From Amphiscolops sp. MND2022 (taxonomy: Eukaryota): a DNA stretch of 64,000 nucleotides. Where the stretch lies: contig OZ076413.1 of assembly GCA_964187785.1 (NCBI GenBank), forward strand, positions 52,576,001-52,640,000, in the 5' to 3' direction. Below the pieces are notes generated by a model that was not told the DNA's origin, searched no databases, and saw only the letters and a list, made by a program, of their open reading frames with translations. A program made the position numbers and the translations under genes. This document shows positions 24,452-43,854 of this stretch, piece after piece (the stretch's first letter is position 1; every line of letters starts with the position of its first letter).

Positions 24452-24581
24452 TGTCGCGTTATGACTAACGCTTTAACAAACATAATTAGGTGCTAAAGTG
24501 CAGTGTATATTTAACTAATAAATACAGAAACAAACATGAACTAGAACTAACGTTTGTTTATGGGGGAGAGAGTTGTAGATA

Positions 24582-24805
24582 AAGATGGCGGCCATAAGGC
24601 GGCGGCCATAACGTGGTAATAATGATGATGAAGTACTGTGACGAGAAAGGAATTGCACAAGTGAAGAATTCTATATTATACCGCGTATATTTGAAATACG
24701 AAAACAGCTATGATTGGTGGCATGTAAACCATGCCTGCTACGCAGCGCACGATAAGAAACGCTTGGCTGTATATATACGGCCAACGCAGGCGAGGAGATT
24801 CACAC
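24582..24805 (+). promoter_or_regulatory. Putative LTR promoter: YY1/Pho-type site, TATA box and initiator
   Basis: AAGATGGCGGC at 24582-24592 plus a second GCGGCCAT; TATATATA at 24770-24777; TCA at 24800-24802, ~30 nt downstream. Confidence 0.5.
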
Positions 24806-25216
24806 ACTTATTGAAACGGACAGAGCTTAAACTTAAAAGCTCTCGTTTCTCTTCACTTCTCTTCCACTTCTCTCCCCTCACCCCTGCTCTTCTTTCTTAC
24901 TTTACCCCCTTTCCTCTCACTTTACTATTATCTTCCCCTTCAGACTTAGAAAGTCTATTTCTCGCCTTCACATTTCAATTCAGATTTCTATTTAACTCAA
25001 CAAAACTTCTTGCTTTATAACTCAGATCCAATGATTCTCTTTTAATCCTACCCTTGCATCTTAGAATATTTCTCCACTCATCCTTGATTTGACTTCAACT
25101 TCCAGAACCAATCTTCCCTTACAAGAAATTTCTAACTTAGAAATTTCTCTTCAATTTCGTCTCCGGTTTGGTGAGTCTGACTATTTAGACCTTTCAGTAG
25201 AGATTTCACTCTCTCT

Positions 25217-25461
25217 GAAACTTCAAATTTAGCTATTTTCCGCTGATTTCAATTCTGCGGTTGACAAAACTTTGACTTTAACTATTTTCCGCCGATATCA
25301 ATTCTGCGGTTGACAAAACTTCAAATTTAGCTATTTTCCGCTGATTTCAATTCTGCGGTTGACAAAACTTTGACTTTAACTATTTTCCGCCGATATCAAT
25401 TCTGCGGTTGACAAAACTTCAAATTTAGCTATTTTCCGCTGATTTCAATTCTGCGGTTGAC
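25217..25461 (+). repeat. 49-bp tandem repeat, alternating A/B variants (ABABA, 5 units) in the 5' LTR
   Basis: A=aaaacttcaaatttagctattttccgctgatttcaattctgcggttgac; B=aaaactttgactttaactattttccgccgatatcaattctgcggttgac. Confidence 0.95.
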
Positions 25462-26130
25462 AAAACTTTAACTTTGATTATTTTCATTAGAACTAAATAG
25501 TTCTATAAAGTTGACGTTACATAAACTCACATAAGAAAAGGGATGATTAAAATTTTAAAGTGCTATATTATGAAAAAGTCTTAATGCTATTCAATTTTCT
25601 ACTGAATAGAGACATCTAAATCAAAACTCTTCCGTTTAAAATAGTACGGATTTGTAAATTTTGTTTGAGAAAAAGATTTCCGAAGAAAAAGGGAAATTCT
25701 TATTATTTGTAAATAGTTTCATTTTCTTGAATGATAAATTGTAAAAGTTATATTACTTCTTCTTGTAAAGTGAAGTTGTAATCTTTATTAATCTGAGATT
25801 TGTAACAATTGAAAGAAATATGGCTATGTCCAGAAATTGTTCACTTTCAATATTCTCAACTCATTCGTAATTAAACATATTTATCCTCCATACATTTTCA
25901 GTAAACGGGAAGCTCATTTACAAACACCGCCTTGCGCGACTCACGCAATTTCTTTTGTTCGCACGTACACGCAAGGCACCCCTTTATCAGTAAGTTGCTA
26001 ATTTATTTATTGGGACTTATACTTGTTAAATCAATAACAGAACCGTCGCGAGATAGTACCTTGTAAAATGCAAACAAGGACTTGACAGATTAAAACTAAT
26101 AAACAAATTTCACCCATGCGTGCGACAAAC

Positions 26131-26147
26131 TGGTGCGACCAGTGAGG
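26131..26147 (+). promoter_or_regulatory. Primer-binding site
   Basis: TGGTGCGACCAGTGAGG 3 nt after the LTR; begins TGG, complementary to tRNA CCA. Cognate tRNA not assigned. Confidence 0.75.
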
Positions 26148-27164
26148 CACCTTTTTCTCTTGTAATAGAGAAGTAAATGAGCTATCTGTTAGAATCCCTA
26201 CTCTCAGAAGTAAGGGTTACTTACTTATTTCTCTTAACATTACTTCTAATTTTCTTCTTTCTCCTACTGCCTCAATATGTGGCTTCTCTAATCTATATAA
26301 ATCGTAAAACTGCTAGTAAATACTCTAACAGAATCTCTCCAGCCTAACAGCTTTGGGAAGAGTTTATGCACTACTCTCTTTCTTTCAATCCCCAAAACCA
26401 TTTGTTAGAAATGATTTACCTTTACGAAAATACTATGAGATTACCATCAGTCCTAAACAAGAATGAAACTGACTCTATACGCTTTATTTAAAGGCACAGT
26501 TGGGAAATTCACTCTAGTCCGGACGGACACAAATTAAGTAAAAGCCCGCCTAGGTCTCCTCGGAGGCTGTTTGAAGGCCGTGAGCCCAGTGGGTATCTTG
26601 GAACCTATGTAGCATTCCGAGTGGGAAACCTAGTATTCTAGTGATAGTACCCAAGTGATTGCATGATAGTGATCTGGGCCCCACGCACTTAATCCTAAAG
26701 ACGAGAGTAACTCCCTCTGTGAACTAGCAGTAGTTATTTTCCTAAAGTTAAAGAAAGGCTCAACGAGCGGATGAAAGACCTAGTGGACTGACTGTACTCT
26801 TCATAGGTTTTCTTTGGGTTAACTCGGAGGATTGGTATACCCCGAACTACCCTTTTTACGATAATCTCAACACTACTGGGATTTGTAAGTATCCCCTAAA
26901 CTGTGGAATCAGAGTACAAAATATAGGAAATGAGCCTAACTTCGACCGAGAAGTGCTATTTTCATTTTTGCTAGCAGCGTATTAAGGATTTTATGATTTG
27001 TCAGACCTGTCTAATAATTATCACTATTAGAATCATAGTACAAACAATTTTTACTTTAACTCTTTGCTGTTATTCTCAAAAGCCAAGAGTATCATACCTC
27101 ATAGAGTCTTTGGCTTATTGTTCTTTGCTTCATCTTCTATCCTTTATAATCTCAATAGCTCACA

Positions 27165-28619
27165 ATGGCTGCGCAAAATTATTTGGCTTATCCAGACCTC
27201 GGCAGAGACCAATTCACGGGAACAGACCCAGATCAAGATCCTGAACAATTTATACAGCTAATTGAAAAGAAGTTCCGTTTCTCTCACGGTGATACCCCAG
27301 CAAACGGAGCAGCACTTGACGACTACAACTTCAGGAGAAAATCCTACTTTGCTACACTACTAAGAGGACCAGCAGCGGAGTGGTTCGAGACAAGTATCAC
27401 AGACGCTAACACCTGGCAAGAAATCAGAGAAAGGTTCATCACAAGATTCGCAGATGGCCGAAATAAATTCAGACACAGATTGGAAGCAGAACATGTCACC
27501 AGAAGAGATGGAGAAGAGATAAAGAATTTTCTACACAGAATCAAAATTGTTGTGGGGAAAGGCTGGCCAGATGATCTTGCCGGCGTCGCACAAAATGACA
27601 GAAACGCAGAAAGAGCAGCACAAGACCGACAAAGAAGACAAAGGTGCATCGACTACTCACTGAGAGGCCTAAGACCTCCAAAACTGAGAGAAAAGGCACA
27701 CGAATATTTAATGGATCACCCGAATGCAACCTGGGAACAATTCTCCCAAGCTGTAATAAACAAAGACCTCTCCTACACGGTAACTACCGCCCTAACTGGC
27801 GGAGAATCACATTCAGACCCACTCATACAAGAAATGCGAGACGACCTGAAGGGAATCAAACTACAAATCAAAGAACAGATGAATAACACAATCAACGCAG
27901 TAGAGAAAACTGTAGACCCTAATGCTACAGGTCGAAGAATGGCCACACGATTCTGTGGCTACTGCCGAACAAATGGGCACACACCTAACTGGTGCAGAAA
28001 GAAGATGAGAGATGAAGAAGTGAAGAAGGTTCAAAACGAAGCTAACCCAGAAAGAAGAATAACATTCACCAACGACTACAACAAAAGAACTGGACCTGAA
28101 CATGGCTCTAGATTTCAACCAAGATTACCAGATTCAGAAATCAGAAAACATATAGCTGTGGCACATCAACTAGCACTGGCTGGAGCTATGCAGTCAAACC
28201 CTGCCTGGAATCAATACGATAGACCACAAAGAAAAAATTTCAACCCAGAACGCCGACCTACGAATACAAGAGTCAATCCTGGTAACCAAAGATTTTCACA
28301 AGAAGGGAGAAGACCCTTCCTAAACAATTCTAACAACTCCAGAAGTGTTTCCCCTGGACCCCAAAGAGCAAGATCTCCGTTCAACTTCAACAGAGACCAG
28401 TCTAGCTCCTTTAATCGCAACATACAACCTCTTCCACCAAGAAATAACTCAGTTTTTCAAAGACCACTAGACAGAAACGAAAGACCCAACACTCCAACTC
28501 AATCTTACGAGCAAAGATTCCCAAAAACTAATGACATAGGAAGATCCAACACAGTACAGTTCTTAGAAACCGACTACTCGGTGAACTCTATTGCCGATTT
28601 CCGCCCTTTAAACTACTAA
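27165..28619 (+). CDS. gag: Gag (484 aa): Ty3/gypsy capsid plus one CCHC zinc knuckle and an N/R/P-rich tail
   Basis: LLRGPAAEWF...TWQEIRERFITRF capsid pattern; CGYCRTNGHTPNWC = C-x2-C-x4-H-x4-C. Confidence 0.93.
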   Translation: MAAQNYLAYPDLGRDQFTGTDPDQDPEQFIQLIEKKFRFSHGDTPANGAALDDYNFRRKSYFATLLRGPAAEWFETSITDANTWQEIRERFITRFADGRNKFRHRLEAEHVTRRDGEEIKNFLHRIKIVVGKGWPDDLAGVAQNDRNAERAAQDRQRRQRCIDYSLRGLRPPKLREKAHEYLMDHPNATWEQFSQAVINKDLSYTVTTALTGGESHSDPLIQEMRDDLKGIKLQIKEQMNNTINAVEKTVDPNATGRRMATRFCGYCRTNGHTPNWCRKKMRDEEVKKVQNEANPERRITFTNDYNKRTGPEHGSRFQPRLPDSEIRKHIAVAHQLALAGAMQSNPAWNQYDRPQRKNFNPERRPTNTRVNPGNQRFSQEGRRPFLNNSNNSRSVSPGPQRARSPFNFNRDQSSSFNRNIQPLPPRNNSVFQRPLDRNERPNTPTQSYEQRFPKTNDIGRSNTVQFLETDYSVNSIADFRPLNY

Positions 28620-28696
28620 GGTCTCCGAAAAATAGAAATAGCAGCAGTGCCCCTCTAAAATTTAGTCTTAATCTTTATTATTTTGCTGCCGGAGAC
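28607..28696 (+). promoter_or_regulatory. -1 programmed ribosomal frameshift signal
   Basis: T TTA AAC heptamer in the gag frame just before the gag stop; 7-nt spacer; GTCTCCG/CGGAGAC and GCAGCA/TGCTGC stems; pol is in the -1 frame and open from 28535. Confidence 0.8.
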
Positions 28697-31600
28697 TCAC
28701 AAAAAGATAGTGGCTTAGAAATCGAATTTCTACTAGACACTGGGGCAACATCTTCAATCATCAACTACAGGACCTTTAGAGAACTTTGCCAGTTTCAACA
28801 AGACCTAGAACTTAGTAGAAGCAATAACACAACACGGAACTACTCTGGGCAGATCATCCCTATGATGGGATACATCACCCTCAAACTCTACTACGATTCC
28901 GATGGACAACATAACTTCCCATTAACAGTCTGGATAACAGAGATGAAAACCCAAAACCTCCTTGGAATGAATTTCTGCCAAGAACAAGTTAACAAAATAC
29001 ACTTTGATCTTCCTGGCATAGAACTCAAAAGACTTATAAATACTTTCTGCTATGGTAGCCTACAACTCAACAAATGTTACCCCTATATATCACAAATTCT
29101 CTCAGTCAGAATTCCTCACTCAATGTATATCGAACCAAAGACGACAAGATGTTACAAATTCGCACCAGAAAACACTAATAACTCATTTCCTCCTGGATCT
29201 ACGTTCCTACCGAACAGGAAGGCAGTTTCTACTGGACTTAACTTCATAAATGTCCTCTGCACACGATTTGAGAAGACTTTACCAATCGTCATGGAAAACA
29301 ACAAAAACCATACAATCACCTTAGTAAAAGGAACTATCGGATACTCAATGCTTGACGTATTAGACCAAGAAATTCCGAAATACCAAATTAGAAACCCGAC
29401 AGAACTCGCATATGCTATCCTAAACGAAAACGAAGAATACAACGACTGTTTCCTATTACACTCTACCATTCCTTCACAAGATATGAACGATTGCCTCAGA
29501 ATAGAAGGAGGAAACTCGAAAACAATACTCAGCAGACCAGACCCTATCATCATCTTCGTCCCGGCCGACCTAAAGCCAGCCAAAGGCTTCTCAAAAGAAA
29601 TCCTAACGAAAATACCTTCACTTAAGGATACATGCGCAAAACAGAAACCACAGAAAGGAGAAACCATACCCTACTGGGACGAAACTCTGAAACGATTTAT
29701 ATATGTTCTGATTACGAAAGCAAAATCAAAAGACAAGATTGACCCACAATTACTAGTTCAATCTCTCGAAACTCTAAAAGCACACGCCAAAATGAGCGGC
29801 ATCAAAACTATATCCATGCTACGGGAAGCCTCAGAGCTAGAAGACTTCCAATGGCAAGACGTCACTCAACTCATTCAAGACGTATTTGCATACTCAGAAA
29901 TACAACTCCGAATTTATACAAGAAACGAACTAGATGTCTATGCCATGACTACAAGAGGAGACCCCGAATACGTACTAGAAGATGAGATACAACAATTTTC
30001 CGAGCAATTTCATCTCAAACATAGAGAGCTGGAGACAGACTTCACAAGCGACGCAAAGTCCTGTCAACCACCCTGCGATGAGCAATTTAAAATCTTCAGG
30101 CCAAAAGAAGACAACGAACGACTGATCGAGTACTACCTTCAGTATCAAAATAAAGAAGCAGTGCGATACATTAAAGAATTCGACTTTCGCTACTCAGACC
30201 TCACAGACGAAGAACTGGTTCTCCTAATAGACTTACTAATGGACGCAAGAGATGTATACTCCCAACACAAATTTGACGTAGGGAAAACCAGACAAAAATT
30301 TAACATTAAACTAGAACCTGGAGCAATTCTAAAGAGACAGAGACCCAGCAAAGTACCACTTCACCTACGAGAAAAGCTAGAGAAGCTACTCACACAACTC
30401 AAAGACGCTGATATCATCAGAGAAATGGGCGACGATGAAGAAATGGGATCCTTATTTGTGAATCCTATTATACTACAACCAAAACATGACTATGTCAAGC
30501 TGATCATAGATGCGAGATATCTAAACTCGGTGACAGATCTAACAAATTATTCCTGGCCCTTAGAACCGATCCAAACCATAATGACACTAATAAATGGAAA
30601 CATCTTCTCAGTAAGTGATCTCTCCTGTGCATTTCACCAAGTCCCATTAGACGAGCCCACGCAAAAACTCACCAGCTTCATCATTGGCGGAAAACAATAC
30701 ACCTTCACCAGGGGATTCTATGGACTCAAGGGATTACCAAGCTTCTTTAGCAGAATGATGACTATCCACTTCGAACCCCTCATCAAAAGGAAACAGGCAA
30801 TTACATACATCGACGACACGTTGATGCAAGCCAAAAACAAACAAGAAATGTTCACGGTAATTCAAGAATACCATAACTTACTGCGGAAAGCCGGACTCAA
30901 GGCAGCACCAGATAAGACACTCTTCTTCTTAAGGAAAGTCAAGTTTTTGGGACACGTGATAGCAGCCGAAGGAATACAACCCGTCGCAAAACGAGTAAAA
31001 GACCTACACAATCTCAAATCACCAAAGACCAAAACCGAAGTGAAAAGCTTCTTAGGAGCTTTGGGCTTCTATAGCTGCTACATCAAGAATCTTCATGTCG
31101 ATAGTCGACCTTTTTACGAACTCACCAAGAAAGATACAAATTTTTGCTGGAACCAAGAACACGAAGACCTTTTCCAGGAAATAAAGAAAAGAATTACCGA
31201 AGACACAGTGCTCGCAATACCCTCGACAAAATACCCCTTTCACATACACGTCGACTCGTCAAACGTTGGGACAGGATGTATCCTCATCCAACAATTCCCA
31301 GAAGGGAAACGGATCATTTCCTTCAACTCAAGAGTTTTCGCAAAGGAAGAACAAAAGATGTCCACACTACACAGAGAATTATGTGGCATAGTCTCAGCTC
31401 TTCAGACGTATGAACACTACATCATCGGATCTCGCTTCCCCATCTACCTATACTGTGATCACAAGCCGATTCTTTATCTCTGGGGAAGAAAGGGACAAAT
31501 TTCACCCCGTTTTTTCAGGTACCAAGTAATTATATCTAAATTCCCGAATCTCAAGATAATTTGGACTCCAGGAAGCAACCTAGCCTTCCCTGATATACTC

Positions 31601-33715
31601 AGTCGAAACGTCTCCATCGAGGAACACAAGAAACATCAACTCAGTCACAAAGTCATCCCAACTGACATACACTTTTTCGACGAACATGGAACCCAAGTAC
31701 ACTACAAAATCAAACACGAAGAAAATGAAGAGACATCCAAGAACGACTTTTACCCCATCTTGTACGAGAAGGGAAAAGAACGGAAAGTACTTCATCTCCA
31801 AAATGATGGGAATAACTTCACAGTTAACTCTATCTACGAGGAACCTAACCTGCCGAAAGTAGAGTCAGCACAGAGTTGCCTCGACGCTGGAAGAGAACTT
31901 GGAAAATTCGAAGAACTAAGACTCAGGTCAGGAACACGGGATAGCACTTCGGATTTATCACAAAACACTTACAGCTCCATCAACAGTGATACGGATGACG
32001 GAGCCCTCACAGACAATCAGAGTCAAGAAATAAACGAGACCAACTACGAGCTCAACACAGAAGATCCCATCGCACGTAACCCAAGTCTTCCCAAAAACGC
32101 GAAGGCAATAGAACACCCCGATCTACCTACAGATTCAACTGAAAAACAAAAGACACCAACACAGGAACTTGTCAGACAACTTGATAAACTATCCAAAGAG
32201 GTAGAACTAAACGTTACAACGATCTTACAAGAACAAATAAATGACCCGGTACTCAGCGTGGTCCGACAATGGGTAAGAACAGGAAACAAACCCGAACCAA
32301 AATCACCAGAGTTACAACACTCAAAAGGCCTCATGCGTTACTTTCAGGAATTCGACAGATTATCTATAGAAGGCCAAGGAAACCTCCTTTGTTATAACGA
32401 GCCAACTGATGACCCAACAGACGAGAATCTGAGAATCTGTCTACCTCTCTCTCTATTTTTAGCTTGCTTTCGTATGGGACATTACAACGACCTCGGCGGC
32501 CACATGGGAGCAGAAAAGTCCTTCCTCAATGCTAAGAGATTTTACTACTGGCCAGGGATGCACAACTGGATCTGTGCCCTCACACAAGATTGCGTTAGCT
32601 GCCAATCTAACAAATCCAAACAACGGAGAAACAACGAAGTCCCACTGGAAGACTGCGAAACCGAAACTCAAGTATTCAGAACCATCCACATTGATCACAA
32701 AGGACCCCTCAATCCTCCCAGTCGTGGAAATTCACATTGCCTTCTGATCATCGACGCCTTCTCACGTTACCTGATGGCATACCCAGTCAGAGACACAGGA
32801 GCACAATCTACAATCAATGCGATGGAAAAATGGATTATGCACTATGGCATCCCTCAATCTATCGTACATGATAGAGGAACAGCTTTCGTGAACACTGAAT
32901 TCGTCAATTGGACTAAAGAGTTTGGCATTACACTTCGACCAAGAACCGCACACTCACCCTGGACAAATGGCAAAGTAGAAACTCAAAATCAACACATTGC
33001 AAGATACTGGAGAAACTTCCTAAACGAATCAGGAAACAACTGGGCCCAACTAGCTGCCAAATTTGCATTCGCCCACAACACAAGCGTCAACTACACGACT
33101 GGAAAGACCCCCTACGAGATAGTGTTTTGCAATAAACCACAGATACCTATGAGTCTGAAGCTGGGACTCTACAGGAACAAAAACAAGAACTGCAAATCAC
33201 AATTCTGTCAAGGATTACCTCCTCATTGCCATAGCGAAAACCAAGTCAAAAACGAACTACTAAATGGACTATTACGACCACAACTATCACAAAGCTTATT
33301 GGAACGAGAAACAGCCTTCAAAAAGGTCTACTCATCCACATATGAAAAGTGCAGAAAACAAACAGCTCAATCACACGCCTACAGGAACAGATTTAAACTT
33401 GGGAACCACCTCAATATTGGACAAAAGGTTCTGCTAGAGAACCATCGAAAAGACCTCTCCAAAAGCCAAAAACTCCAACAACTGCGACTAGGACCCTTTA
33501 CGGTTACCAAACGAATTACAAATACAACTTACCAAATAATGGAAGATCAAAACCCCGTGAATCTCCGAACTGTACATAGGAACCATCTAATAGAATACTT
33601 TCCTAAAGAAGAAACACTCCCCCCTCTTATCGAAGAATACACTACTCCCCACCGTGGAGACACGGATTTTTATAACAATCTTGTCAAAGGAAGAATTGAA
33701 CAACTTAATGTTTAA
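28608..33715 (+). CDS. pol: Pol: protease - macrodomain - RT - RNase H - integrase (Gag-Pol fusion; ORF-track ATG at 28862 lies downstream of the protease active site)
   Basis: FLLDTGATSSII (~28727-28762, in frame upstream of the ATG); YIDD at 30806-30817; RNase H VDSS...RELCG...CDHK...DILSR; IN H-H/C-x2-C, D-x35-E (HDRG...GKVE) and GPF motif. Confidence 0.95.
29501..29920 (+). other. TARG1/OARD1 (Poa1p-like) macrodomain inside Pol, between PR and RT
   Basis: RFIYVLITK...LVQSLETLKAHAKMSGIKTISMLREASELEDFQWQDVTQLIQDVFAYSEIQLRIYT aligns by eye, ungapped, to recalled human TARG1 RYIYYLITK...[56 protein letters not shown]. Confidence 0.85.
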
Positions 33716-34117
33716 GAACCACAAAAACTCGGAGACCTCTGCATATTGCCAGTACGGAATCAACAAAACCAAATACTTGCCCGCAAAAGAACGCAAACCC
33801 CCCAGAGCACAGACTCTGGTATCATCTCTCCAGAAAATCAGTTGTTGTCAACTCCCAAGACTCCCGATCAGCCTTCGACATCACATCCTCAAAACGCAGC
33901 AACCCCTATCCTGACGTTAACTCAACGTCAACCAACTCCAGCACCCCCAACTAACACCCCGGCATCGTCTACCAAGTCAACGACTCCCTTGCAAGAGTTA
34001 CGAAAGGCTGTTGCCCGCCAAATAGAGAGAAATCCACGTTATCAGCGAGCACAACCCAATCAACCAGCACGACAGTCCAAACTTCGTGAAAGGACTAGAA
34101 TTGGTTACAAAGAATAA
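33716..34117 (+). CDS. In-frame P/T/Q-rich continuation of Pol beyond a single TAA (probable integrase tail)
   Basis: Same frame as pol, open for 133 codons, ends RYQRAQ...KLRERTRIGYKE, resembling basic gypsy IN C-termini. Confidence 0.55.
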   Translation, partial: EPQKLGDLCILPVRNQQNQILARKRTQTPQSTDSGIISPENQLLSTPKTPDQPSTSHPQNAATPILTLTQRQPTPAPPTNTPASSTKSTTPLQELRKAVARQIERNPRYQRAQPNQPARQSKLRERTRIGYKE

Positions 34118-34124
34118 CCTTACT

Positions 34125-34511
34125 ATGCCGTGCCATAAAGTCTATCTAAACTTGCCTTGGCAAGTCCCGCGAGAACTCCAGTCCTTAGGAATTCTGCAGG
34201 TTACGATTACTAAAATCTACTGGACCTACAAAAACAAAATAGTTAGAATTTGTTTCTACTCCAACGACCCAGATCCTAGCCCACATAAACAACCTACGCC
34301 TAGAAAATCTAACCTTCATATACACCCAGAATCACCTACTTTCGCCCGCTTATATCAACACTTAGCCTATTATGCCGTCACCCACCATGACCCTATCCTA
34401 GAGGAACTACTATCCTACATGCCTACCCTGATACCTGACCTACAACCTTCATTACCTAACACACAAAAAGACTTATTCTGCTGTTCTACTATCTCCTCGC
34501 CTAGCTCCTAG
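34125..34511 (+). CDS. Accessory ORF A (128 aa), unknown; first of four putative paralogues
   Basis: ATG 7 nt after the Pol-tail stop; shares I-x2-I...h-x-h-x-h and S-x2-[FYA]-x2-L-x3-[LF] motifs with ORFs B-D. Confidence 0.6.
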   Translation: MPCHKVYLNLPWQVPRELQSLGILQVTITKIYWTYKNKIVRICFYSNDPDPSPHKQPTPRKSNLHIHPESPTFARLYQHLAYYAVTHHDPILEELLSYMPTLIPDLQPSLPNTQKDLFCCSTISSPSS

Positions 34512-34676
34512 CCGGATATTACCGCTTATTCGAAAAATATTATCTTTATTATTATTATTATTATTAGACTTTTTATCTATACAATTTGTGCAACCCCGAG
34601 AAGGAACTTACGAAAAGCAGCAAACACAAAAGCGTAGAAAAATAAAGTATTTCCTGGAGATGAGAGGCAATAATGC

Positions 34677-35339
34677 CTACTCAATCTCCAGGAAACCTCC
34701 CTTCTCTGCAAGTCGCCGCAGCTGAGCCGCCCGCTCCCCCATTGTCCACAATGAATAGAGGCGGGTCCACTGACCCCTCTCAAAACTAGTCAGCTGCGAG
34801 TAGCCACTTATGTAGGCTCGCAGCTGGAAGACGACTATTTCGCCGAGAGAGGACAGGAGAGTCTGCTCCCAACGGGCCCCCCAGTTAGCCCGCAAGAAAC
34901 TAGTTAGAGCATTTGGACCGGGAGGCCCAGAAACAGAAAACCCGGGGGTACCCTGAAGGGAACTAGTTAATGAAGCCCAGTTTTCTAGGCGGTCGATATC
35001 CCTATGGGTAAATAAACCCATAAAACTTTGATCCCCCGGGCTCTCCAAAACACCCTGCGAGATGGTAGAGGGAGCTTGCGGAAAAGGGCCACTAGTCCTC
35101 GGGGCCACAAACGCCACAAAAGACCCACCCCCAGAGGTCCCTGCCTGAGAACCTGATGACGCGGGAGCAGAAGAACTGCTGCGCGCTCCGCTCGACGAGG
35201 ACGGCCCAGCTGACGACGACGATTGTGGCGGCAAAGAGGTAGCGGCAGTGCCCGACACAGACCCTGGAGCAGTAGTCTCCTCATCGGTCGAGGATTCTTC
35301 GTAATAGTCGCTATAGTTGTTGTTGTTGTTGTTGCTCAT
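34677..35339 (-). CDS. Antisense accessory ORF (220 aa from MSNNNN; 231 aa from the upstream ATG at 35372), unknown
   Basis: Long ORF overlapping no sense gene; acidic/Ser-rich N-half, Trp-containing helical-looking C-half; TATAAA (minus, 35381-35386) upstream and AATAAA (minus, 34545-34550) downstream. Confidence 0.7.
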   Translation of the reverse strand: MSNNNNNNYSDYYEESSTDEETTAPGSVSGTAATSLPPQSSSSAGPSSSSGARSSSSAPASSGSQAGTSGGGSFVAFVAPRTSGPFPQAPSTISQGVLESPGDQSFMGLFTHRDIDRLENWASLTSSLQGTPGFSVSGPPGPNALTSFLRANWGARWEQTLLSSLGEIVVFQLRAYISGYSQLTSFERGQWTRLYSLWTMGERAAQLRRLAEKGGFLEIE

Positions 35340-35614
35340 CCCTAAATACAAATTTGATTTATTTAAAGTCATGCAAAATGTTTATAATTATTGATTGAAG
35401 TCAACCATATATGTATCACTATTCAACTTAGTCATCAGATATAAAATATAATATCCTACCCGGACATTTGTCTAGTTTACTACGACGACTCATGAAGTCG
35501 TAACCCTCTCTCCCCTACAAATTACCCCCAAAAACGCAATGAAATAACTGATGATTCCATTCTCAGATTTGCTATGTTTGATGCACACACGCCACAAGGC
35601 ATAACAGCTCACTG

Positions 35615-35836
35615 ATGATCATAATATTCAAAATTGACAACCGACTTTCCCAGATAACTGATATTCAGAAGGAACCCTCAACACAGAACATAATCATACA
35701 AGCCTACGCAATCGCAGAAGAAGAGAGTGAAACCTACACGTGTGTGCCAGCATCACCTATCTACCCACTACTGGAGAGTCTACTATATAATAACACACCT
35801 ACCGAAGTCTTCACAAGAGCCAAGTCAGTCCTTTAA
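35615..35836 (+). CDS. Accessory ORF B (73 aa), putative paralogue of A/C/D
   Basis: Shared motif; stop overlaps the ORF C start (TAATG). Confidence 0.5.
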   Translation: MIIIFKIDNRLSQITDIQKEPSTQNIIIQAYAIAEEESETYTCVPASPIYPLLESLLYNNTPTEVFTRAKSVL

Positions 35837-36231
35837 TGTCCTCTCCCGCAGTTGCCGTATTTCGAGGAAATAAGTACTACTTCCACACTCAATTTCAACC
35901 TCCGGTTCCTTGGAAACCCATACAACTCACGGGTGAATACGAAATACAGTCAATCTTTTACGAGATCACTACCTCGGCGATACAAGTCCGTATACTCACA
36001 CCAGAAGACAAAGAAGCACTAGTCCTCTTCCCTATTCACTTCGGGTCCAAGGAATACGCCTACCTATTCCTATCGTTCCAACAATACATACTCCAACACC
36101 CCGCCGTCCTTAAAGACAAGGCTTTCGACGACTTGGTTTATTTTATGGATATCACCCTAGTAACTAACCCCTTTGAAGAAGAGGTTAGAATCAAATATCT
36201 TCACACCCTAGTTGAGACCTATGATGTTTAA
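35836..36231 (+). CDS. Accessory ORF C (131 aa), putative paralogue
   Basis: Shared motif; TAATG coupling with B; overlaps ORF D by 11 nt. Confidence 0.65.
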   Translation: MSSPAVAVFRGNKYYFHTQFQPPVPWKPIQLTGEYEIQSIFYEITTSAIQVRILTPEDKEALVLFPIHFGSKEYAYLFLSFQQYILQHPAVLKDKAFDDLVYFMDITLVTNPFEEEVRIKYLHTLVETYDV

Positions 36232-36565
36232 AATACAACTCAAATTCCTCTGGCGTCACCCGGAAACAAACACACTTCTTGAGATCCTCTCTATAGCCTG
36301 GAAAGAGAGCGCCCCCGCACTTCAGATTGAACTCCACAGCCTCCGACCACATCAAACGGGACATTGGCTCATCCCTGTCGCCACAGACTCGACAGAAGCA
36401 GCAGATCTTGCGAAGGCGCTAACCGACTACAGGGAGATCGCTTACTTAGATCACGTTCACCCTCTGACCCTTCATCTCCTCAGCAAGTTAATCGATTTCC
36501 TCGACGCTCAGAGAGGTAACAAACACTCTCCCAGTCTAAAATCAATCAGTAATAACTACAGCTGA
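36221..36565 (+). CDS. Accessory ORF D (114 aa from MMFKIQ), putative paralogue
   Basis: Shared motif; ATG inside the last codons of ORF C. Confidence 0.6.
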   Translation: MMFKIQLKFLWRHPETNTLLEILSIAWKESAPALQIELHSLRPHQTGHWLIPVATDSTEAADLAKALTDYREIAYLDHVHPLTLHLLSKLIDFLDAQRGNKHSPSLKSISNNYS

Positions 36566-36611
36566 ACCTTCACAGATGGTTGAAGTTAGTTTCTTTTACT
36601 ATTTTTCTTCG

Positions 36612-37045
36612 GGCACTCTTTGAAAAGTAGTGAGGTTACTACTATAAAATTTTAACCTCCGCTTAGTGTCGTGCCAGCTAAGCTGCCGGTTTGATATTAC
36701 GGCTTGCCTTTTTACGGCCTTATTTCAGGATCCATAACATTAAACTAAACTAAAAGACAAATAAACTTCTCCTTCTCTTAGGTACGTGTGAACAGTAGTG
36801 AGGTTACTACTATAAAATTTTAACCTCCGCTTAGTGTTGTACCAGCTAAGCTGCCGGTTTGATATTACGGCTTGCCTTTTTACGGCCTTACTCCGAAACC
36901 TATACTTTAAACAAAAAACAACAATCTTTCCATAAGGCACTTTCCAATAGTAGTGAGGTTACTACTATAAAATTTTAACCTCCGCTTAGTGTCGTGCCAG
37001 CTAAGCTGCCGGTTTGATATTACGGCTTGCCTTTTTACGGCCTTA
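36612..37045 (+). ncRNA. Three copies of a ~110-nt structured RNA element (97-nt core) separated by unrelated spacers
   Basis: Cores at 36626-36722, 36794-36890, 36949-37045; helices AGTAG/CTACT, GAGGTTA/TAACCTC, GCTTAG/CTAAGC, GCCG/CGGC, and GGCAC/GTGCC, which co-varies to GGTAC/GTACC in copy 2. Confidence 0.7.
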
Positions 37046-37113
37046 CCGTGGATCCACATATCTATAAAAAACATTTTTCCTGATTGATTGTCAAAGACTG
37101 AAGAATTTCAGAA

Positions 37114-39261
37114 ATGAAATTATTTTACTTACTCTTTTTATGCGCCCATTACGCGCCCGTTGTGATATTACAACGTCCAACGCCAAACCTCGCTAGCGTT
37201 GCTAAAAAACTGCGAGTAACTCATTTCGACTGCGGCGAAATGACCCAAAATAAACTCTACGCATTGAATCAAGTTGAACAATGCAATGTGGCACCTGAAA
37301 ACTTAGAGGTAAGTCGTGCGAGCGTAACGTTATACACTAAACATTTCCGCCGCACTATCAACGCCACTATGTGCCGTGTGAAACATCAGAGTGAAGAATG
37401 GCATTGTGGTTATCACGACCACTCCAGTATGTCAATCCTACACGACGGAATCACCAGCGATCTTTCCCTGTCACCCGAAACCTGCAAGGCAATGGGTGAA
37501 GGCAAAGAAGTCATAATCCATGGACAACCCCTCAAATTTAAGAAAGGAGTGAAACAAGTACAGACGAGAAACGCCAAATACGGAAAGAGTTGGGACGGTG
37601 TACGCGACCCAGATACCCGAAATGAATGCAAGACAGGTGGCTGGATCAAAAGAGAAACATTCGAATCTCACATCCAAGATGCTGAATTATCAGTAAAAAC
37701 TCGAGATGGAAAAGTCCTGACTCCGTTTCAGATGGTCCTTCCCTGCCCCTTAGAACAACTAGGTTGCGAAACGACGTCACTGGACCCATACGCCTACACA
37801 TGGGCGGAGCCCGATAATTGCGTGCTTGCAGTACATAGGAAAGAAATCGTGAACATGATCAAACACGGATCTAACTACTATATTGTAAGCGGCAACGACT
37901 CCACTACCAAATTTTTATTCGAAGTCTACAACAGACCACAAAAGTATTGCAACAAACCAGACGATGTATACCCGACCAACTACGAATCCCTGTACGTTTC
38001 AATCCAACTTGGTGGCTTCGACATGACGTCCGGCAGACGACTCGGCATCTCCATGGGAGAGACATCTAAACTACAATATTATTCACCCGAAGATGGTTCT
38101 GCTAATGGCCGACTCCACCTCTTTCGAGGCCCGAGCGACCCCAACCCTAATACACCTCATTACCTCAACATGGATTACGAGTTACACCAAGGGACAAAGC
38201 TTGATTATCTCTTCTTTGAGAGCACTCGTCTCCTCGAAGCTTCAGAAATCCAGCTCCTCAAAGCACAATGCGAACAAGAAAGAACTCAAATCCTTACTAT
38301 TTTGATGCTATCAATGGAAAATCCTCGCCTCGCCGGATACATGCTCACGGGAAATCGCTCAATGTTCCTGAACACAGATGGCAGCCTCGCTTGGCTCTAC
38401 CACTGTCCGGAATCCCACTCACCTCTTCACACGATGAACCGATGCTACGACCGCATACCCATCTTCTACAAAGGAGTGGTTGCCTTCGTGGACCCAATCA
38501 CCCGACAGACCTATCCTAACGCGAACGCCCAAAATTGCAGCGATCGCATTAAGAACCTCTTTCAATTGGATATGGAAGACAAAGACTCCTGGTTTACCCT
38601 CACTCCTTCACCCGAACATCGCGACCGACCTGCTATCTTCGGACCCAAAGACATACAACCAATGATTACTAGATCCTTCCCTGGTTCACAAGACGCGGGA
38701 ATGTATACGCCTAAACAACTCTCAGAATTTTGGGACAACATCCTCATCAGCGCAGCGTCTCGCAACGCCCTCCAGAAGTTCTCACGAGAGCTCATCACAC
38801 CCTCAATGGCCCATAGTGGACCTGAATCTTTCGCGTATTATGCACCCCGTACAGATTTTTATGTTGACGGCATGATCTCACCCGATTACTTCAAAAATCA
38901 GTTCCTTGAAACATTTGGAAGTATATCTTACGTACTAGAACTCTGCGGCGCGTATTTTGGCGCCTTTCTTTTCATTAAGTTCGTAATAGATATCACGGTA
39001 CTCGTCTTCCGATACTTTGAACTTCGTCACCTCACAGGTAATACACTGAGCTTCACTAAAACATTGCTCAGTGCTTCGTACAATCTTTTCTTTACTTCAG
39101 TTTTAACTTCTGTATTCACCCCGCGGGCCCCTTACGAGGATAGCGTTGAAGATAAAAACGCGAAAACTGAAGATAATGGAAAAGAAGTAGAACTCCAAGC
39201 ACTGAAGAATAAGGAAGAATCACTTTATCCCTCAGTACAGAGCTTCGTAGCTCCAATATAA
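37114..39261 (+). CDS. env: Envelope glycoprotein (715 aa), class III fusion protein of the chuvirus/Monjiviricetes type
   Basis: Signal peptide; FDC...C...C-x10-CG-x2-DH N-terminus; YTW...NC; TKLDY; QCEQER...L...NP; CYDRIP...FVDP; AGMY; TM at aa ~604-632. This layout matches chuvirus-like G proteins as recalled. Confidence 0.8.
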   Translation: MKLFYLLFLCAHYAPVVILQRPTPNLASVAKKLRVTHFDCGEMTQNKLYALNQVEQCNVAPENLEVSRASVTLYTKHFRRTINATMCRVKHQSEEWHCGYHDHSSMSILHDGITSDLSLSPETCKAMGEGKEVIIHGQPLKFKKGVKQVQTRNAKYGKSWDGVRDPDTRNECKTGGWIKRETFESHIQDAELSVKTRDGKVLTPFQMVLPCPLEQLGCETTSLDPYAYTWAEPDNCVLAVHRKEIVNMIKHGSNYYIVSGNDSTTKFLFEVYNRPQKYCNKPDDVYPTNYESLYVSIQLGGFDMTSGRRLGISMGETSKLQYYSPEDGSANGRLHLFRGPSDPNPNTPHYLNMDYELHQGTKLDYLFFESTRLLEASEIQLLKAQCEQERTQILTILMLSMENPRLAGYMLTGNRSMFLNTDGSLAWLYHCPESHSPLHTMNRCYDRIPIFYKGVVAFVDPITRQTYPNANAQNCSDRIKNLFQLDMEDKDSWFTLTPSPEHRDRPAIFGPKDIQPMITRSFPGSQDAGMYTPKQLSEFWDNILISAASRNALQKFSRELITPSMAHSGPESFAYYAPRTDFYVDGMISPDYFKNQFLETFGSISYVLELCGAYFGAFLFIKFVIDITVLVFRYFELRHLTGNTLSFTKTLLSASYNLFFTSVLTSVFTPRAPYEDSVEDKNAKTEDNGKEVELQALKNKEESLYPSVQSFVAPI

Positions 39262-39307
39262 AGCCAAAAACAATTTCAAGTTCATTCATTCATTAGTTTA
39301 CTTTTAG

Positions 39308-39889
39308 AATCTAGAACCACTATTCGACCTACCAAGCCTGGACGACGATACCCTGGATCCTATCCCAGAAAGTGACCTAGAAATCGAACCCCTATCTCCT
39401 TCAGACTTTTTGACACCAGACTCGTCTACAACAATTACCTTCCTTCCCGACCCCCCTGACTCAACGGTCCCATCATCACCCTCAAAATCTCCAACTCCAA
39501 CCTTCACACCAACGCCATCCGACCAACTCCCCTTTCCTTTGTCATTCACAGGAGACATACCACCAATCCCGTCAACACAACATCCTCCTAGATTTGGTGG
39601 AAAGGACATCAGAAGAACCACACCACAAAAACACCATCATGAATGGAACAACGAGATAGCCGATGAAGCACCCTTACATAAGCAACATAAAAGGGAATAC
39701 TTCACTAGAAAAGCCAGATACGTTAAAAAACCTAGGTTTAACGCAAACCTAAAGTATTCTCTACTCCCACAGTTTTCAACCTGGAAAATCGTCTTTTGGG
39801 ACAACAAAAGACAAGAATACACTATTGAGAACCCTGCACTGAAGGGACAGCGGCTGACAGTTCCCTTAAGATCCATATCTGCACAATGA
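39308..39889 (+). CDS. ORF E: ATG-less second exon (193 aa), acidic/Pro-Ser-Thr-rich then basic; predicted to be spliced to env codons 1-65
   Basis: Frame opens immediately after acceptor tttacttttAG (39307); phase-0 donor GAG|GTAAGT at 37308/37309. Confidence 0.6.
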   Translation, partial: NLEPLFDLPSLDDDTLDPIPESDLEIEPLSPSDFLTPDSSTTITFLPDPPDSTVPSSPSKSPTPTFTPTPSDQLPFPLSFTGDIPPIPSTQHPPRFGGKDIRRTTPQKHHHEWNNEIADEAPLHKQHKREYFTRKARYVKKPRFNANLKYSLLPQFSTWKIVFWDNKRQEYTIENPALKGQRLTVPLRSISAQ

Positions 39890-40824
39890 GCCAAAAATTA
39901 AACCCAAATGCCACCCCCTTCATCCCAAAACACAAACCCTACCTACCGATCCCTAACCCCGACTGGCCACCTATGCCTGAAGAAAACGATCAAGAAGAAC
40001 ATGCAAACCTCGAAGGAGTGGAAAGACTAAATATGTGGATTAGTGAATGGGAGAAATCAACTAGTACCTATAACCAGGGAACAAAAAGCACACCGCTTCG
40101 AAAGTCCTTCCCTTTAACGGACATTAATCAACCCCAAAAGAAGTTAGAAAACCGAATCAAACTGCTATGTACCTCAATCGAAGAGGCACGAGATAAACGT
40201 CAACAATTGGAAGTCACTATCTTCGATTTGCGAGCGACAATCAAACACCAAAGCTCCCTCCTCAGCAGAGCGAGCCAGATTGAAGCGAACGGTAAAGATT
40301 TTATCACTTGGCAAGTTTCCGCCTTCTCCACACTTTACCGAAAAGCAAGGACCTCTCCAGACGATCCCTTTCACAACATCAAAAACAGCTTCGCGAGCCC
40401 TATTTACCCAACATACCTATCAGGCTGCAAAATTTCCTTCAGAATATTCCCTTACGGGATAAACATCTTCCGTGGGACCCACTCTTCTATTAGCTGTGAA
40501 CTTCATTATAGCGACTTCACTCACCCACAAACATGGCCCTTTGATAAAACAGTAGAAGTCGAAATCCTTGATCAGAAGGACGAAGGCAACAAGTGGTCCA
40601 CACTTTTCCCAATCAACCCCCACAACCACGAAGATACCCTTCACAATCTCTACACGCACCCGAACTTCCTCAAAGAAGACTTCATCCCTCATACGAAGTT
40701 ACTTGTCAACTTCAGAGAAGCATTCCTAAACAATGACTCTATAATATTTAGAATCAAATTTAAAGAACCTTCCCCTAAGTCACTCGCGCTACATAACTCC
40801 CCCTCCTTTCAGTCTGACCCATAA
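39886..40824 (+). CDS. TRAF-like protein (312 aa): PAM2 motif, coiled coil, TRAF-C/MATH domain; no RING or zinc fingers
   Basis: FITWQVSAFS...SPIY...GCKISFRIFPYG...RGTHSSI...WPFDKTVEVEILDQ...FLNNDSIIFRI parallels TRAF FIWKISDFS...SPAFY...GYKMCLRIYLNG...RGTHLSL...WPFNQKVTLMLLDQ...YVRDDAIFIK; KLNPNATPFIP at aa 4-14. Confidence 0.88.
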   Translation: MSQKLNPNATPFIPKHKPYLPIPNPDWPPMPEENDQEEHANLEGVERLNMWISEWEKSTSTYNQGTKSTPLRKSFPLTDINQPQKKLENRIKLLCTSIEEARDKRQQLEVTIFDLRATIKHQSSLLSRASQIEANGKDFITWQVSAFSTLYRKARTSPDDPFHNIKNSFASPIYPTYLSGCKISFRIFPYGINIFRGTHSSISCELHYSDFTHPQTWPFDKTVEVEILDQKDEGNKWSTLFPINPHNHEDTLHNLYTHPNFLKEDFIPHTKLLVNFREAFLNNDSIIFRIKFKEPSPKSLALHNSPSFQSDP

Positions 40825-40849
40825 CTCATTTATTTTCTTTCATCCTGCC

Positions 40850-40860
40850 AGGGGGGTGAG
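40850..40860 (+). promoter_or_regulatory. Polypurine tract
   Basis: AGGGGGGTGAG one base before the 3' LTR. Confidence 0.85.
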
Positions 40861-40861
40861 C

Positions 40862-42733
40862 TGTCGCGTTATGACTAACGCTTTAACAAACATAATTAGG
40901 TGCTAAAGTGCAGTGTATATTTAACTAATAAATACAGAAACAAACATGAACTAGAACTAACGTTTGTTTATGGGGGAGAGAGTTGTAGATAAAGATGGCG
41001 GCCATAAGGCGGCGGCCATAACGTGGTAATAATGATGATGAAGTACTGTGACGAGAAAGGAATTGCACAAGTGAAGAATTCTATATTATACCGCGTATAT
41101 TTGAAATACGAAAACAGCTATGATTGGTGGCATGTAAACCATGCCTGCTACGCAGCGCACGATAAGAAACGCTTGGCTGTATATATACGGCCAACGCAGG
41201 CGAGGAGATTCACACACTTATTGAAACGGACAGAGCTTAAACTTAAAAGCTCTCGTTTCTCTTCACTTCTCTTCCACTTCTCTCCCCTCACCCCTGCTCT
41301 TCTTTCTTACTTTACCCCCTTTCCTCTCACTTTACTATTATCTTCCCCTTCAGACTTAGAAAGTCTATTTCTCGCCTTCACATTTCAATTCAGATTTCTA
41401 TTTAACTCAACAAAACTTCTTGCTTTATAACTCAGATCCAATGATTCTCTTTTAATCCTACCCTTGCATCTTAGAATATTTCTCCACTCATCCTTGATTT
41501 GACTTCAACTTCCAGAACCAATCTTCCCTTACAAGAAATTTCTAACTTAGAAATTTCTCTTCAATTTCGTCTCCGGTTTGGTGAGTCTGACTATTTAGAC
41601 CTTTCAGTAGAGATTTCACTCTCTCTGAAACTTCAAATTTAGCTATTTTCCGCTGATTTCAATTCTGCGGTTGACAAAACTTTGACTTTAACTATTTTCC
41701 GCCGATATCAATTCTGCGGTTGACAAAACTTCAAATTTAGCTATTTTCCGCTGATTTCAATTCTGCGGTTGACAAAACTTTGACTTTAACTATTTTCCGC
41801 CGATATCAATTCTGCGGTTGACAAAACTTCAAATTTAGCTATTTTCCGCTGATTTCAATTCTGCGGTTGACAAAACTTTGACTTTAACTATTTTCCGCCG
41901 ATATCAATTCTGCGGTTGACAAAACTTCAAATTTAGCTATTTTCCGCTGATTTCAATTCTGCGGTTGACAAAACTTTGACTTTAACTATTTTCCGCCGAT
42001 ATCAATTCTGCGGTTGACAAAACTTCAAATTTAGCTATTTTCCGCTGATTTCAATTCTGCGGTTGACAAAACTTTAACTTTGAATTTTTTCATTAGAACT
42101 AAATAGTTCTATAAAGTTGACGTTACATAAACTCACATAAGAAAAGGGATGATTAAAATTTTAAAGTGCTATATTATGAAAAAGTCTTAATGCTATTCAG
42201 TTTTCTACTGAATAGAGACATCTAAATCAAAACTCTTCCGTTTAAAATAGTACGGATTTGTAAATTTTGTTTGAGAAAAAGATTTCCGAAGAAAAAGGGA
42301 AATTCTTATTATTTGTAAATAGTTTCATTTTCTTGAATGATAAATTGTAAAAGTTATATTACTTCTTCTTGTAAAGTGAAGTTGTAATCTTTATTAATCT
42401 GAGATTTGTAACAATTGAAAGAAATATGGCTATGTCCAGAAATTGTTCACTTTCAATATTCTCAACTCATTCGTAATTAAACATATTTATCCTCCATACA
42501 TTTTCAGTAAACGGGAAGCTCATTTACAAACACCGCCTTGCGCGACTCACGCAATTTCTTTTGTTCGCACGTACACGCAAGGCACCCCTTTATCAGTAAG
42601 TTGCTAATTTATTTATTGGGACTTATACTTGTTAAATCAATAACAGAACCGTCGCGAGATAGTACCTTGTAAAATGCAAACAAGGACTTGACAGATTAAA
42701 ACTAATAAACAAATTTCACCCATGCGTGCGACA
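40862..42733 (+). repeat. 3' LTR (1872 bp)
   Basis: Copy of the 5' LTR, 196 bp longer because of four extra 49-bp units. Confidence 0.97.
41627..42067 (+). repeat. 49-bp tandem repeat, ABABABABA (9 units) in the 3' LTR
   Basis: Counted directly; 4 x 49 = 196 bp accounts for the whole LTR length difference. Confidence 0.95.
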
Positions 42734-43854
42734 GTCTCAAGGACCATAGAGTTAGGTAGAGTCAATTTACAGTCTATACTACACAATCAAAACAAAAAGA
42801 ATAAAACACCAGGAACACAGCACGTTTAGAGTGTTGCACATTTTCAGTTGCTGTGCACTCTCGTCTTATGAGATGGAATCAAGGATTCAATTTCACAAAC
42901 TGCGCATGTGAAGAGGGTTGTAAAATTTTTATTAGATTTTTGCTGAAAAATGATTTGGTGTTTTGGATGTCTAAAATAGATTTTTTGCCGCAAAATTAAA
43001 TTATTTTTCTGTTAACTTTGAGAATCAAGTTCAATTGGCTAAAACCCCGGAATTGGCTGAAAATTTTTTAAAACCGACAGTTTCTTGAAGTTTTAAATCG
43101 ATTACAAAAGCCTCCTGTTTTTCAGAGTTCTGGTACAAATATTTCAAAATATTGCAAATTGTCCACGAGAACATTAGTTAAATTTTCAGGTAACTTTTTA
43201 GAGACTTTTCGGACTCTAAGAACTCTAAGAGCTTTAAGAACTCTAACTTTAACTCTAATAAGTTTAAGGACTTTAATTCCTATAAATAATCTTGAACGTT
43301 ATTTCCCACTTGCCATGGACGTAATTTCCTCCAGCCCAGTTCTACTTGTTAAGATTTTGTAAACAAAGATAATTTTATTCAACACAAACAGAGCAGGAAT
43401 TTTTCAGCCTATTGTTTTTTGTTAAGGACCCTAATTTGAGAAACAGTGCCTATAGAGCAAATGGGATTTCGGAATCCCTTTGACTTCTTCCCGCTAATTC
43501 ACAGTCTATTTTTTCGGAATTGAAAGAGTGTGAAAAATACTGTCCTGAAGAGTGTCTTGTTCCTGAAAATGAACATATTTTTAGTTATTTGTTCTGTTCC
43601 TTCGGCATCACTGTGCTATTTTTTATTGAAAAATCAAATGACTGCTCATAAAAGCTAATTCAATATTGAAAATTTTTAAACTAGACTCCTGTACTGAGAT
43701 CCCATCGCAGTTCATCGATGGCCATCGTAGTCCCATGAAGCCCATCGCAGTCCCATGGAGCCCATCGATGGCCATCAATGGTCCATCGATGGTCATCGAT
43801 GATGTTTTTCTAACGAATCAAAAAAATTCGTTCGACTTGGCCATTGCTCTATAC

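Follow-up and report, generated by a model that had tools for sequence, protein, structure and literature searches.

Env-bearing Ty3/gypsy elements of invertebrates are usually described as carrying gag, pol, and env only. Env-carrying Ty3/gypsy errantiviruses with an HSV/gB-type env are the subject of a survey by Chary and Hayashi (PMC13524379), the main text of which does not use the word "accessory" and reports that, for elements outside insects, its first filter accepted no more than 1000 nt from POL to ENV, some groups being extended manually by 3-5 kb at a later stage. Small accessory ORFs (sORF1 and sORF2) occur in the invertebrate Ty3/gypsy elements of the MDG1 group of LTR retrotransposons, where sORF2 encodes a transmembrane fusogen in env-less elements (PMC11952523). 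LTR retrotransposons of bdelloid rotifers possess additional ORFs 3′ of pol that are common to several element types and represent single captured enzymes or env-like genes, such as a GDSL lipase and a DEDDy nuclease; the string "duplicat" has no occurrence in the text of that article (PMC5408684).

The locus described here lies in a 64,000-nt stretch of contig OZ076413.1 from Amphiscolops sp. MND2022 (hereafter the window). It shares with the surveyed errantiviruses (PMC13524379) the LTR-gag-pol-env order, young multicopy insertions, and a class III-type fusion gene akin to chuvirus glycoproteins, and differs from them in having five small ORFs between pol and env, more ORFs after env, and a total length of 18.3 kb. 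As in the MDG1 group, the small ORFs belong to an invertebrate Ty3/gypsy element; unlike sORF2, the products of ORFs A-D lack a membrane segment and are encoded beside a full env. Where the bdelloid elements carry captured genes 3′ of pol, the present element carries a nonenzymatic paralogue array. No description of such an array was found in the literature on env-bearing LTR elements, as covered by mostly freely accessible papers and the main text of PMC13524379, which is limited evidence. ORFs A-D are situated inside a young, multicopy Ty3/gypsy LTR element (24452-42733), with pol on their 5′ side and env on their 3′ side. The principal features of the element are as follows.

24448-24451 (left) and 42734-42737 (right): target-site duplication GTCT, 4 nt
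24452..26127, plus strand: 5′ LTR, 1676 nt, TG...CA, with an internal 49-nt tandem repeat
27165..28619, plus strand: gag (PF03732, E=5.6e-5)
28862..34117, plus strand: pol, with Pfam domains for RT, RNase H, integrase, and SH3
36574..37046, no strand assigned: three repeats of 155-168 nt each, in the gap between D and env
37114..39261, plus strand: env, 715 aa (PF24664 Monjiviricetes_fusion, E=4.5e-33, above the family cut-off)
39886..40824, plus strand: TRAF-like ORF, 312 aa, with a C-terminal MATH domain (PF22486, E=1.2e-9; PF21355, E=2.3e-8)
40862..42733, plus strand: 3′ LTR, 1872 nt, differing from the 5′ LTR by 3 substitutions and one 196-nt repeat indel

Paired LTRs with a target-site duplication, gag, the RT-RNase H-integrase order, and an env-like fusion gene, which together characterize an env-bearing LTR element, are all present. 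Domain order and Ty3/Tf2-type Pfam matches (PF19259, weak; PF17919; PF24626) assign the element to the predicted Ty3/gypsy errantivirus type by the criteria tested. The 49-nt tandem repeat occupies 25218-25470 and 41628-42075 within the two LTRs, the 3′ LTR being longer by four units. A leader of ~1 kb (26095-27165) extends from the 5′ LTR to gag, with the primer-binding-site-like sequence TGGTGCGACC directly after the LTR, and a short repeat with a 10/20-nt period is found in the right flank of the element (43701-43798). A slippery-type site, TTTAAAC, lies at the 3′ end of gag with a hairpin downstream of it (z -0.95, alone not significant), suggesting that pol may be reached by a -1 frameshift at TTTAAAC. 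A premature in-frame stop (33713-33715) in the C-terminal tail of pol is private to the window copy among the 37 copies listed (35 are open and one is out of register), which rules out programmed read-through. The repeats beside D form hairpins (folding z -1.2 to -2.3), have no match in Rfam, and appear to vary in copy number among insertions.

Downstream of env, the TRAF-like ORF also matches TRAF5 chain 6ku5 (E=3.6e-6) and has a weakly PAM2-like N-terminus (PF07145, E=0.008), and no RING domain was detected in it. Over the family-1 loci that these observations cover, the ORF is ~50-57% identical (pS ~0.7, pN ~0.25) among subfamilies whose env genes are 93-95% identical. A Pro/Ser/Thr-rich open frame without a Pfam match (39410-39889) extends from env to the TRAF-like ORF and overlaps the start of the latter. 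When the accessory region was used as the query in a DNA search of the 1.07-Gb genome (best 40 of 180 candidates scored), it was recovered at 99-100% identity over almost the entire query in at least 14 places and in subfamilies at about 74-97%. An env search of viral contigs retrieved no free-virus relatives.

The preliminary description of this DNA had reported four small ORFs and, on the basis of two short sequence blocks, regarded them as divergent paralogues of a single domain. The pol-env interval contains the following features.

34125-34511, plus strand: ORF A, 128 aa, class A module paralogue, starting 7 nt past the end of the pol frame
34677..35372, minus strand: antisense ORF R, 231 aa, lying in the A-B interval; N-terminus of low complexity, C-terminal ~105 aa conserved
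35560..35572, plus strand: putative splice-acceptor-like motif, 48 nt 5′ of B
35615-35836, plus strand: ORF B, 73 aa, conserved gene, its stop overlapping the start of C (TAATG)
35836-36231, plus strand: ORF C, 131 aa, class C module paralogue
36221-36565, plus strand: ORF D, 114 aa, class D module paralogue, with an 11-nt overlap with the end of C

All four ORFs were found on the plus strand at the positions given, and each contains both blocks once, at a spacing of 42, 33, 34, and 35 residues in A, B, C, and D, respectively. Shuffled sequences contain the two-block pattern at 0.5-3 per 10,000, a frequency that is not an independent test as the pattern was derived from the same four sequences. 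Antisense ORF R, overlooked in the preliminary description, is the fifth small ORF of the interval. Its homologues are confined to families 1 and 2, its dN/dS is 0.08-0.09 versus L017/L021, and it gives no score against the module profile, of which it is not a member. Antisense ORFs also occupy a similar place in families 3 and 4; homology of R to these was not confirmed, with no detectable similarity.

Selection on the small ORFs was estimated by the Nei-Gojobori method from comparisons of the window with 8 family-1 subfamily copies. The resulting dN/dS values are 0.05-0.10 for ORF A (8 comparisons), 0.01-0.04 for ORF B (7 copies), 0.05-0.08 for ORF C, and 0.04-0.09 for ORF D (the 5 copies with computable dS), with 0.14-0.16 for B and 0.11-0.12 for D against family 2. 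For comparison, the end of pol gives 0.03-0.14 and env 0.03-0.05; gene-wide values over the selection tests are 0.04-0.21. The proposal that the ORFs are maintained by selection is borne out by purifying selection on A, B, C, and D (0.01-0.16 across subfamilies), and all four are, judged by these substitution patterns, real protein-coding genes.

The proposed paralogy holds for A, C, and D, which exceed their controls in HHalign and profile searches and in leave-class-out profile tests, in the register first described; it does not extend to B, which fails every test. Single-sequence comparisons of the six pairs give p=0.009 for C-D, 0.04 for B-D, 0.08 for A-D, and 0.23-0.81 for the remainder. 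Profiles from genome copies alone score A-C and C-D at 22-26, at or just above the top of 288 decoys (21.8). An HMM made only from 9 family-3 and family-4 sequences, and thus without window sequences, places D (20.2 bits) at the top of 283 stop-to-stop ORFs in the window, followed by A (11.4 bits); for C the result is marginal, with 33 of 1000 shuffles scoring as high, and B is absent. Leave-class-out HMMs, built from genome loci only with the tested class omitted, score A, C, and D at 17.0, 17.1, and 39.1 bits, respectively, values that none of 1000 shuffles reaches and that lie above the best decoy ORFs (10.2, 6.2, and 6.6). Class-to-class HHalign yields 93/83% for A-C, 88/91% for A-D, and 94/94% for C-D over 88-92 columns, with reversed controls at ≤0.7%. 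The range over enlarged classes is 83-96% (88-97 columns), where enlargement by pooled-profile matches is a possible bias and a repeat with genome loci only agrees. The class sets consist of intact or trimmed members only, the broken D copy L047 having been dropped from one alignment. A two-block PSSM likewise places A, C, and D at 24-26 bits in the register first described (0 of 2000 shuffles). The pooled profile retrieved 79 representatives at E ≤ 0.001 among 1.84 billion, 78 of which match some class best; the other, the repeat protein P0069, matches none and is probably spurious.

That the likeness of A, C, and D reflects convergence or chance among small strand-plus-helix proteins could be argued from pairwise identities of only 15-25% and from single-sequence tests that are mostly not significant. 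It is nevertheless highly improbable given collinear full-length profile matches, clean reversed, shuffled, and decoy controls, one test without selection circularity, and a recent duplication of the same module that is directly visible in family 4. The profile comparisons show A, C, and D to be three old paralogues of one domain of ~90-95 residues, which constitutes an accessory module of an env-bearing Ty3/gypsy lineage. For these three, each of which has its own clade and is under purifying selection, the original idea of a small module that expanded long ago and was retained by selection is upheld.

Whether B represents a fourth member of the paralogue set, truncated and further diverged, as first proposed, is a matter separate from function. 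A PSSM made without B sets both blocks exactly at the positions first described, and the block spacing of 33 resembles that of C and D (34 and 35); yet the score is 1.9 bits, versus 24-26 for the left-out A, C, and D, and is equaled by 150 of 2000 shuffles. A gene of 71-73 aa coupled to the next module gene is found at the same position in all four families, and class A aligns with the B-position genes of families 3 and 4 at 26-32% over ~22 columns (HHalign). B itself, however, gives 0.4% against these genes (not significant) and ≤0.8% against the pooled A/C/D/G profile. Between 35 and 936 of 1000 shuffles equal or exceed its HMM scores, the reversed B profile scores 11.8-15.1% against A, above the 1.0-2.5% of real B, and B is without both conserved tryptophans. 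With a best p of about 0.035-0.075 across profile tests, a common origin of B with the module is tentative and somewhat doubtful. B is a coupled partner gene of the array.

Sister families in the same genome provide a view of how the array has evolved. Family 2 (L041-L043) retains the A, B, C, D order at 46-68% identity; an extra frame of 176-207 aa in the A-B gap (L043:5036-5659), present in two of the three family-2 copies, is missing in the window. Families 3 and 4 were reached by an env search, and their pol-env intervals (4.2-5.4 kb, versus 3.0 kb in the window element) are without a tblastn match to A-D, though they contain small ORFs showing that pattern. The family-3 array comprises E1, a 72-aa gene, and E2, and that of family 4 a 71-aa gene followed by G1, G2, and G3; E1, E2, G1, G2, and G3 show mutual homology (HHalign as high as 100%, with 88-98% for each against E2). 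Three module genes are found at 16 of 19 family-4 loci, with one further locus each having three with one broken, two, and none. G1 and G2 are identical at 201 of 318 aligned nucleotides, and in L080 the only module gene agrees with G1 at 52 of the 53 leading columns and with G2 in the remainder. A recent duplication giving G1 and G2 and a collapse in L080 via recombination of neighbors are thus visible. The accessory block is tandemly duplicated or triplicated, in whole or in part, in L027, L040/L018, L047, and L053.

An unrooted tree of 62 members (118 columns, no outgroup) resolves A (97/95), C (100/98), and D (95/92) as one clade each, a monophyly that is partly by construction since classes were assigned by best BLAST match, and sets the family-3 and -4 copies apart (92/99). 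The tree indicates old classes and an independent re-expansion in families 3 and 4. The matches in this genome to the C-like P0076 and the D-like P0034 do not exceed 31-36% and fall only in C and only in D loci, respectively, so that classes C and D exist in other assemblies; C followed by D is also found in the other-assembly sequences P0081 and P0090. Divergence between the window copy and other subfamilies differs from gene to gene (pS 0.67-0.76 for D, ~0.7 for the TRAF-like ORF, and 0.32-0.38 for env), which points to the exchange of single genes between subfamilies. The array expands and contracts through duplication and neighbor recombination, and single genes are swapped between subfamilies.

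Class A has also been found by itself. About 83 of the best 150 class-A matches (529 candidates) lie at 53-57% identity, and all 16 retrieved loci (L081-L096) are without pol, env, or B-D matches within 9.9 kb. This cassette of about 0.45-0.9 kb resides inside different larger repeats, has many genome-wide copies, and is under weak constraint (pooled pN/pS 0.51 over 16 loci; 15 of 16 frames open). In P0026, P0050, P0062, and P0084, a G-type module runs on into gag-start-like sequence, which suggests that elements elsewhere may carry the module just upstream of gag. Longer fused forms of the module numbered 0 among the 8000 candidates scored, which is weak evidence.

The layout of the array bears on its expression. 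The B/C (TAATG) and C/D (11 nt) overlaps are kept in families 1-3 and replaced by 0-2-nt gaps in family 4, and the B-position gene overlaps or abuts the following module gene in all four families. An acceptor-like motif within 120 nt upstream of B is present at 67 of 79 loci with a B start (loci partly redundant) and in family 2, and AATAAA signals occur on the plus strand after A and on the minus strand after ORF R. Stop-start re-initiation is a mechanism known from other viruses. Judged from these motifs, B-C-D would probably be translated from one spliced message by stop-start coupling, and A would probably have a separate message or depend on re-initiation following pol.

Translational coupling of B-C and C-D that has been kept in this way would suit a fixed stoichiometry. 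Combined with strong purifying selection and the C-then-D order in other assemblies (P0081 and P0090), it could be taken to mean that the paralogues are subunits of a hetero-oligomer with an element-internal job, whether as a part of the particle situated between capsid and envelope or in RNA export or transactivation on the repeats beside D. Such an assembly is unlikely, considering that copy number is 3, 2, or 1, that families 3 and 4 possess a different set of paralogues, that class A is also found alone in other repeats, and that many members are strongly acidic.

Conservation in the domain is strongest in six hydrophobic columns (W, I, W, L, L, and L, at 79-90%), polar columns are all ≤73%, and net charge ranges from -15 to +5. 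Maxima of 19-residue hydropathy are 0.3-1.35 in 47 of 48 rows, and none of A, B, C, and D (0.47, 0.68, 1.05, and 0.86) displays a transmembrane segment. Hydrophobic-only conservation, varied charge, and the lack of a membrane segment speak against an enzymatic, fusogenic, or uniformly nucleic-acid-binding function and in favor of a small scaffold with a surface particular to each paralogue. No Pfam match reached the curated cut-off and no Pfam family was hit by more than 2 of 54 module members (best single E=0.0019); matches were likewise absent from PHROGs, ESM Atlas representatives, and PDB sequences (best E=0.22). The integrase C-terminal SH3-like domain was rejected as the source of the module (HHalign ≤0.9%, same as the reversed control). 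A likeness to PH, PC4/PUR, or chromo folds, suggested by the strand-helix pattern, found no support, the sole trace being VID27_PH in 1 of 54 members (E=0.0076).

ORFs A, C, and D most likely encode small adaptors, soluble and intracellular, with a shared hydrophobic core, which the hydrophobic pattern predicts to comprise about four strands and two helices, while their diverged surfaces would give each paralogue a different partner. The beta-strand-plus-helix fold of the preliminary description is likewise a prediction from the hydrophobic pattern. Their putative use would be to modulate or block host defense or signaling in a cell-to-cell stage, beside the TRAF-like ORF. This role, favored because a TRAF-like ORF without a detected RING sits in the same element, is one in which we place slightly less than even confidence. 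The comparison with viral host-antagonist families drawn in the preliminary description does fit this context, that of genes of an env-bearing LTR element with a TRAF-like ORF. Gene-wide signs of an arms race were not seen, the dN/dS values of A, C, and D (0.04-0.12) being close to those of pol and env (0.03-0.14), and as positive selection was not seen at the gene level, a host-antagonist role is putative. The stable order and identity of A, C, and D across families and assemblies fit fixed core roles as well as host antagonism.

VANC proteins of VANDAL transposons (PMC5735166, PMC10398659) offer a further point of comparison, being transposon accessory proteins that diversify between families in elements with tandem repeats; the difference is that VANDALs are plant DNA transposons, and no similarity of VANC to A-D was detected. 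By analogy, the module might be a sequence-specific nucleic-acid-binding anti-silencing factor acting on the tandem repeats of its own element. Such repeats lie in the LTRs and beside D, a repeat of another kind precedes the B-position gene of family 3, most members of the A and D classes are neutral to basic, and the class-A cassette has been taken up by unrelated repeats. We regard this as improbable nonetheless, as basic residues are not conserved, the C and G classes are acidic (to -15), the stand-alone cassette is weakly constrained (pooled pN/pS 0.51, 16 loci), and no VANC similarity was found in Pfam.

The element is of a known kind, and what is new is an unannotated domain family in an accessory array. 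It represents a lineage with a retrovirus-like accessory region whose domain family is unmatched in Pfam, PHROGs, PDB sequences, and ESM Atlas representatives, and with four families and many young copies in one genome, duplication, collapse, and gene exchange are directly readable. Should the proteins target host factors, they would be a pointer to the defense pathways of the host; should they be particle or RNA factors, they would be a new part of errantivirus biology.

The multigene families, or gene accordions, of poxviruses and asfiviruses undergo birth-and-death of a small domain with contraction by recombination. They belong to large DNA viruses, have documented host targets, and are often under positive selection. 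The A/C/D array resembles them in duplication and recombinant contraction, with host targets and positive selection documented only in the viral families. A broader and unlikely reading would see here "complex" errantiviruses with an accessory accordion, in which one fold with at least four old classes, and B as a truncated fifth, is re-expanded in sister lineages, swapped, and taken up by unrelated repeats, each copy acting against a different host defense protein. If this were true, the paralogues could serve directly as probes of antiviral defense and transposon control in an animal lineage that has been little studied. Lentiviral Vpr and Vpx, which are helical proteins, arose by duplication. 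They correspond to the module genes in being small paralogous accessory proteins encoded between pol and env of a reverse-transcribing element (PMC3715410), and they differ in having known targets, where the present array has at least three old classes and repeated re-expansion and no sequence similarity to them was found. By analogy, the module appears to work like Vpr/Vpx or the DNA-virus multigene families without being related to them.
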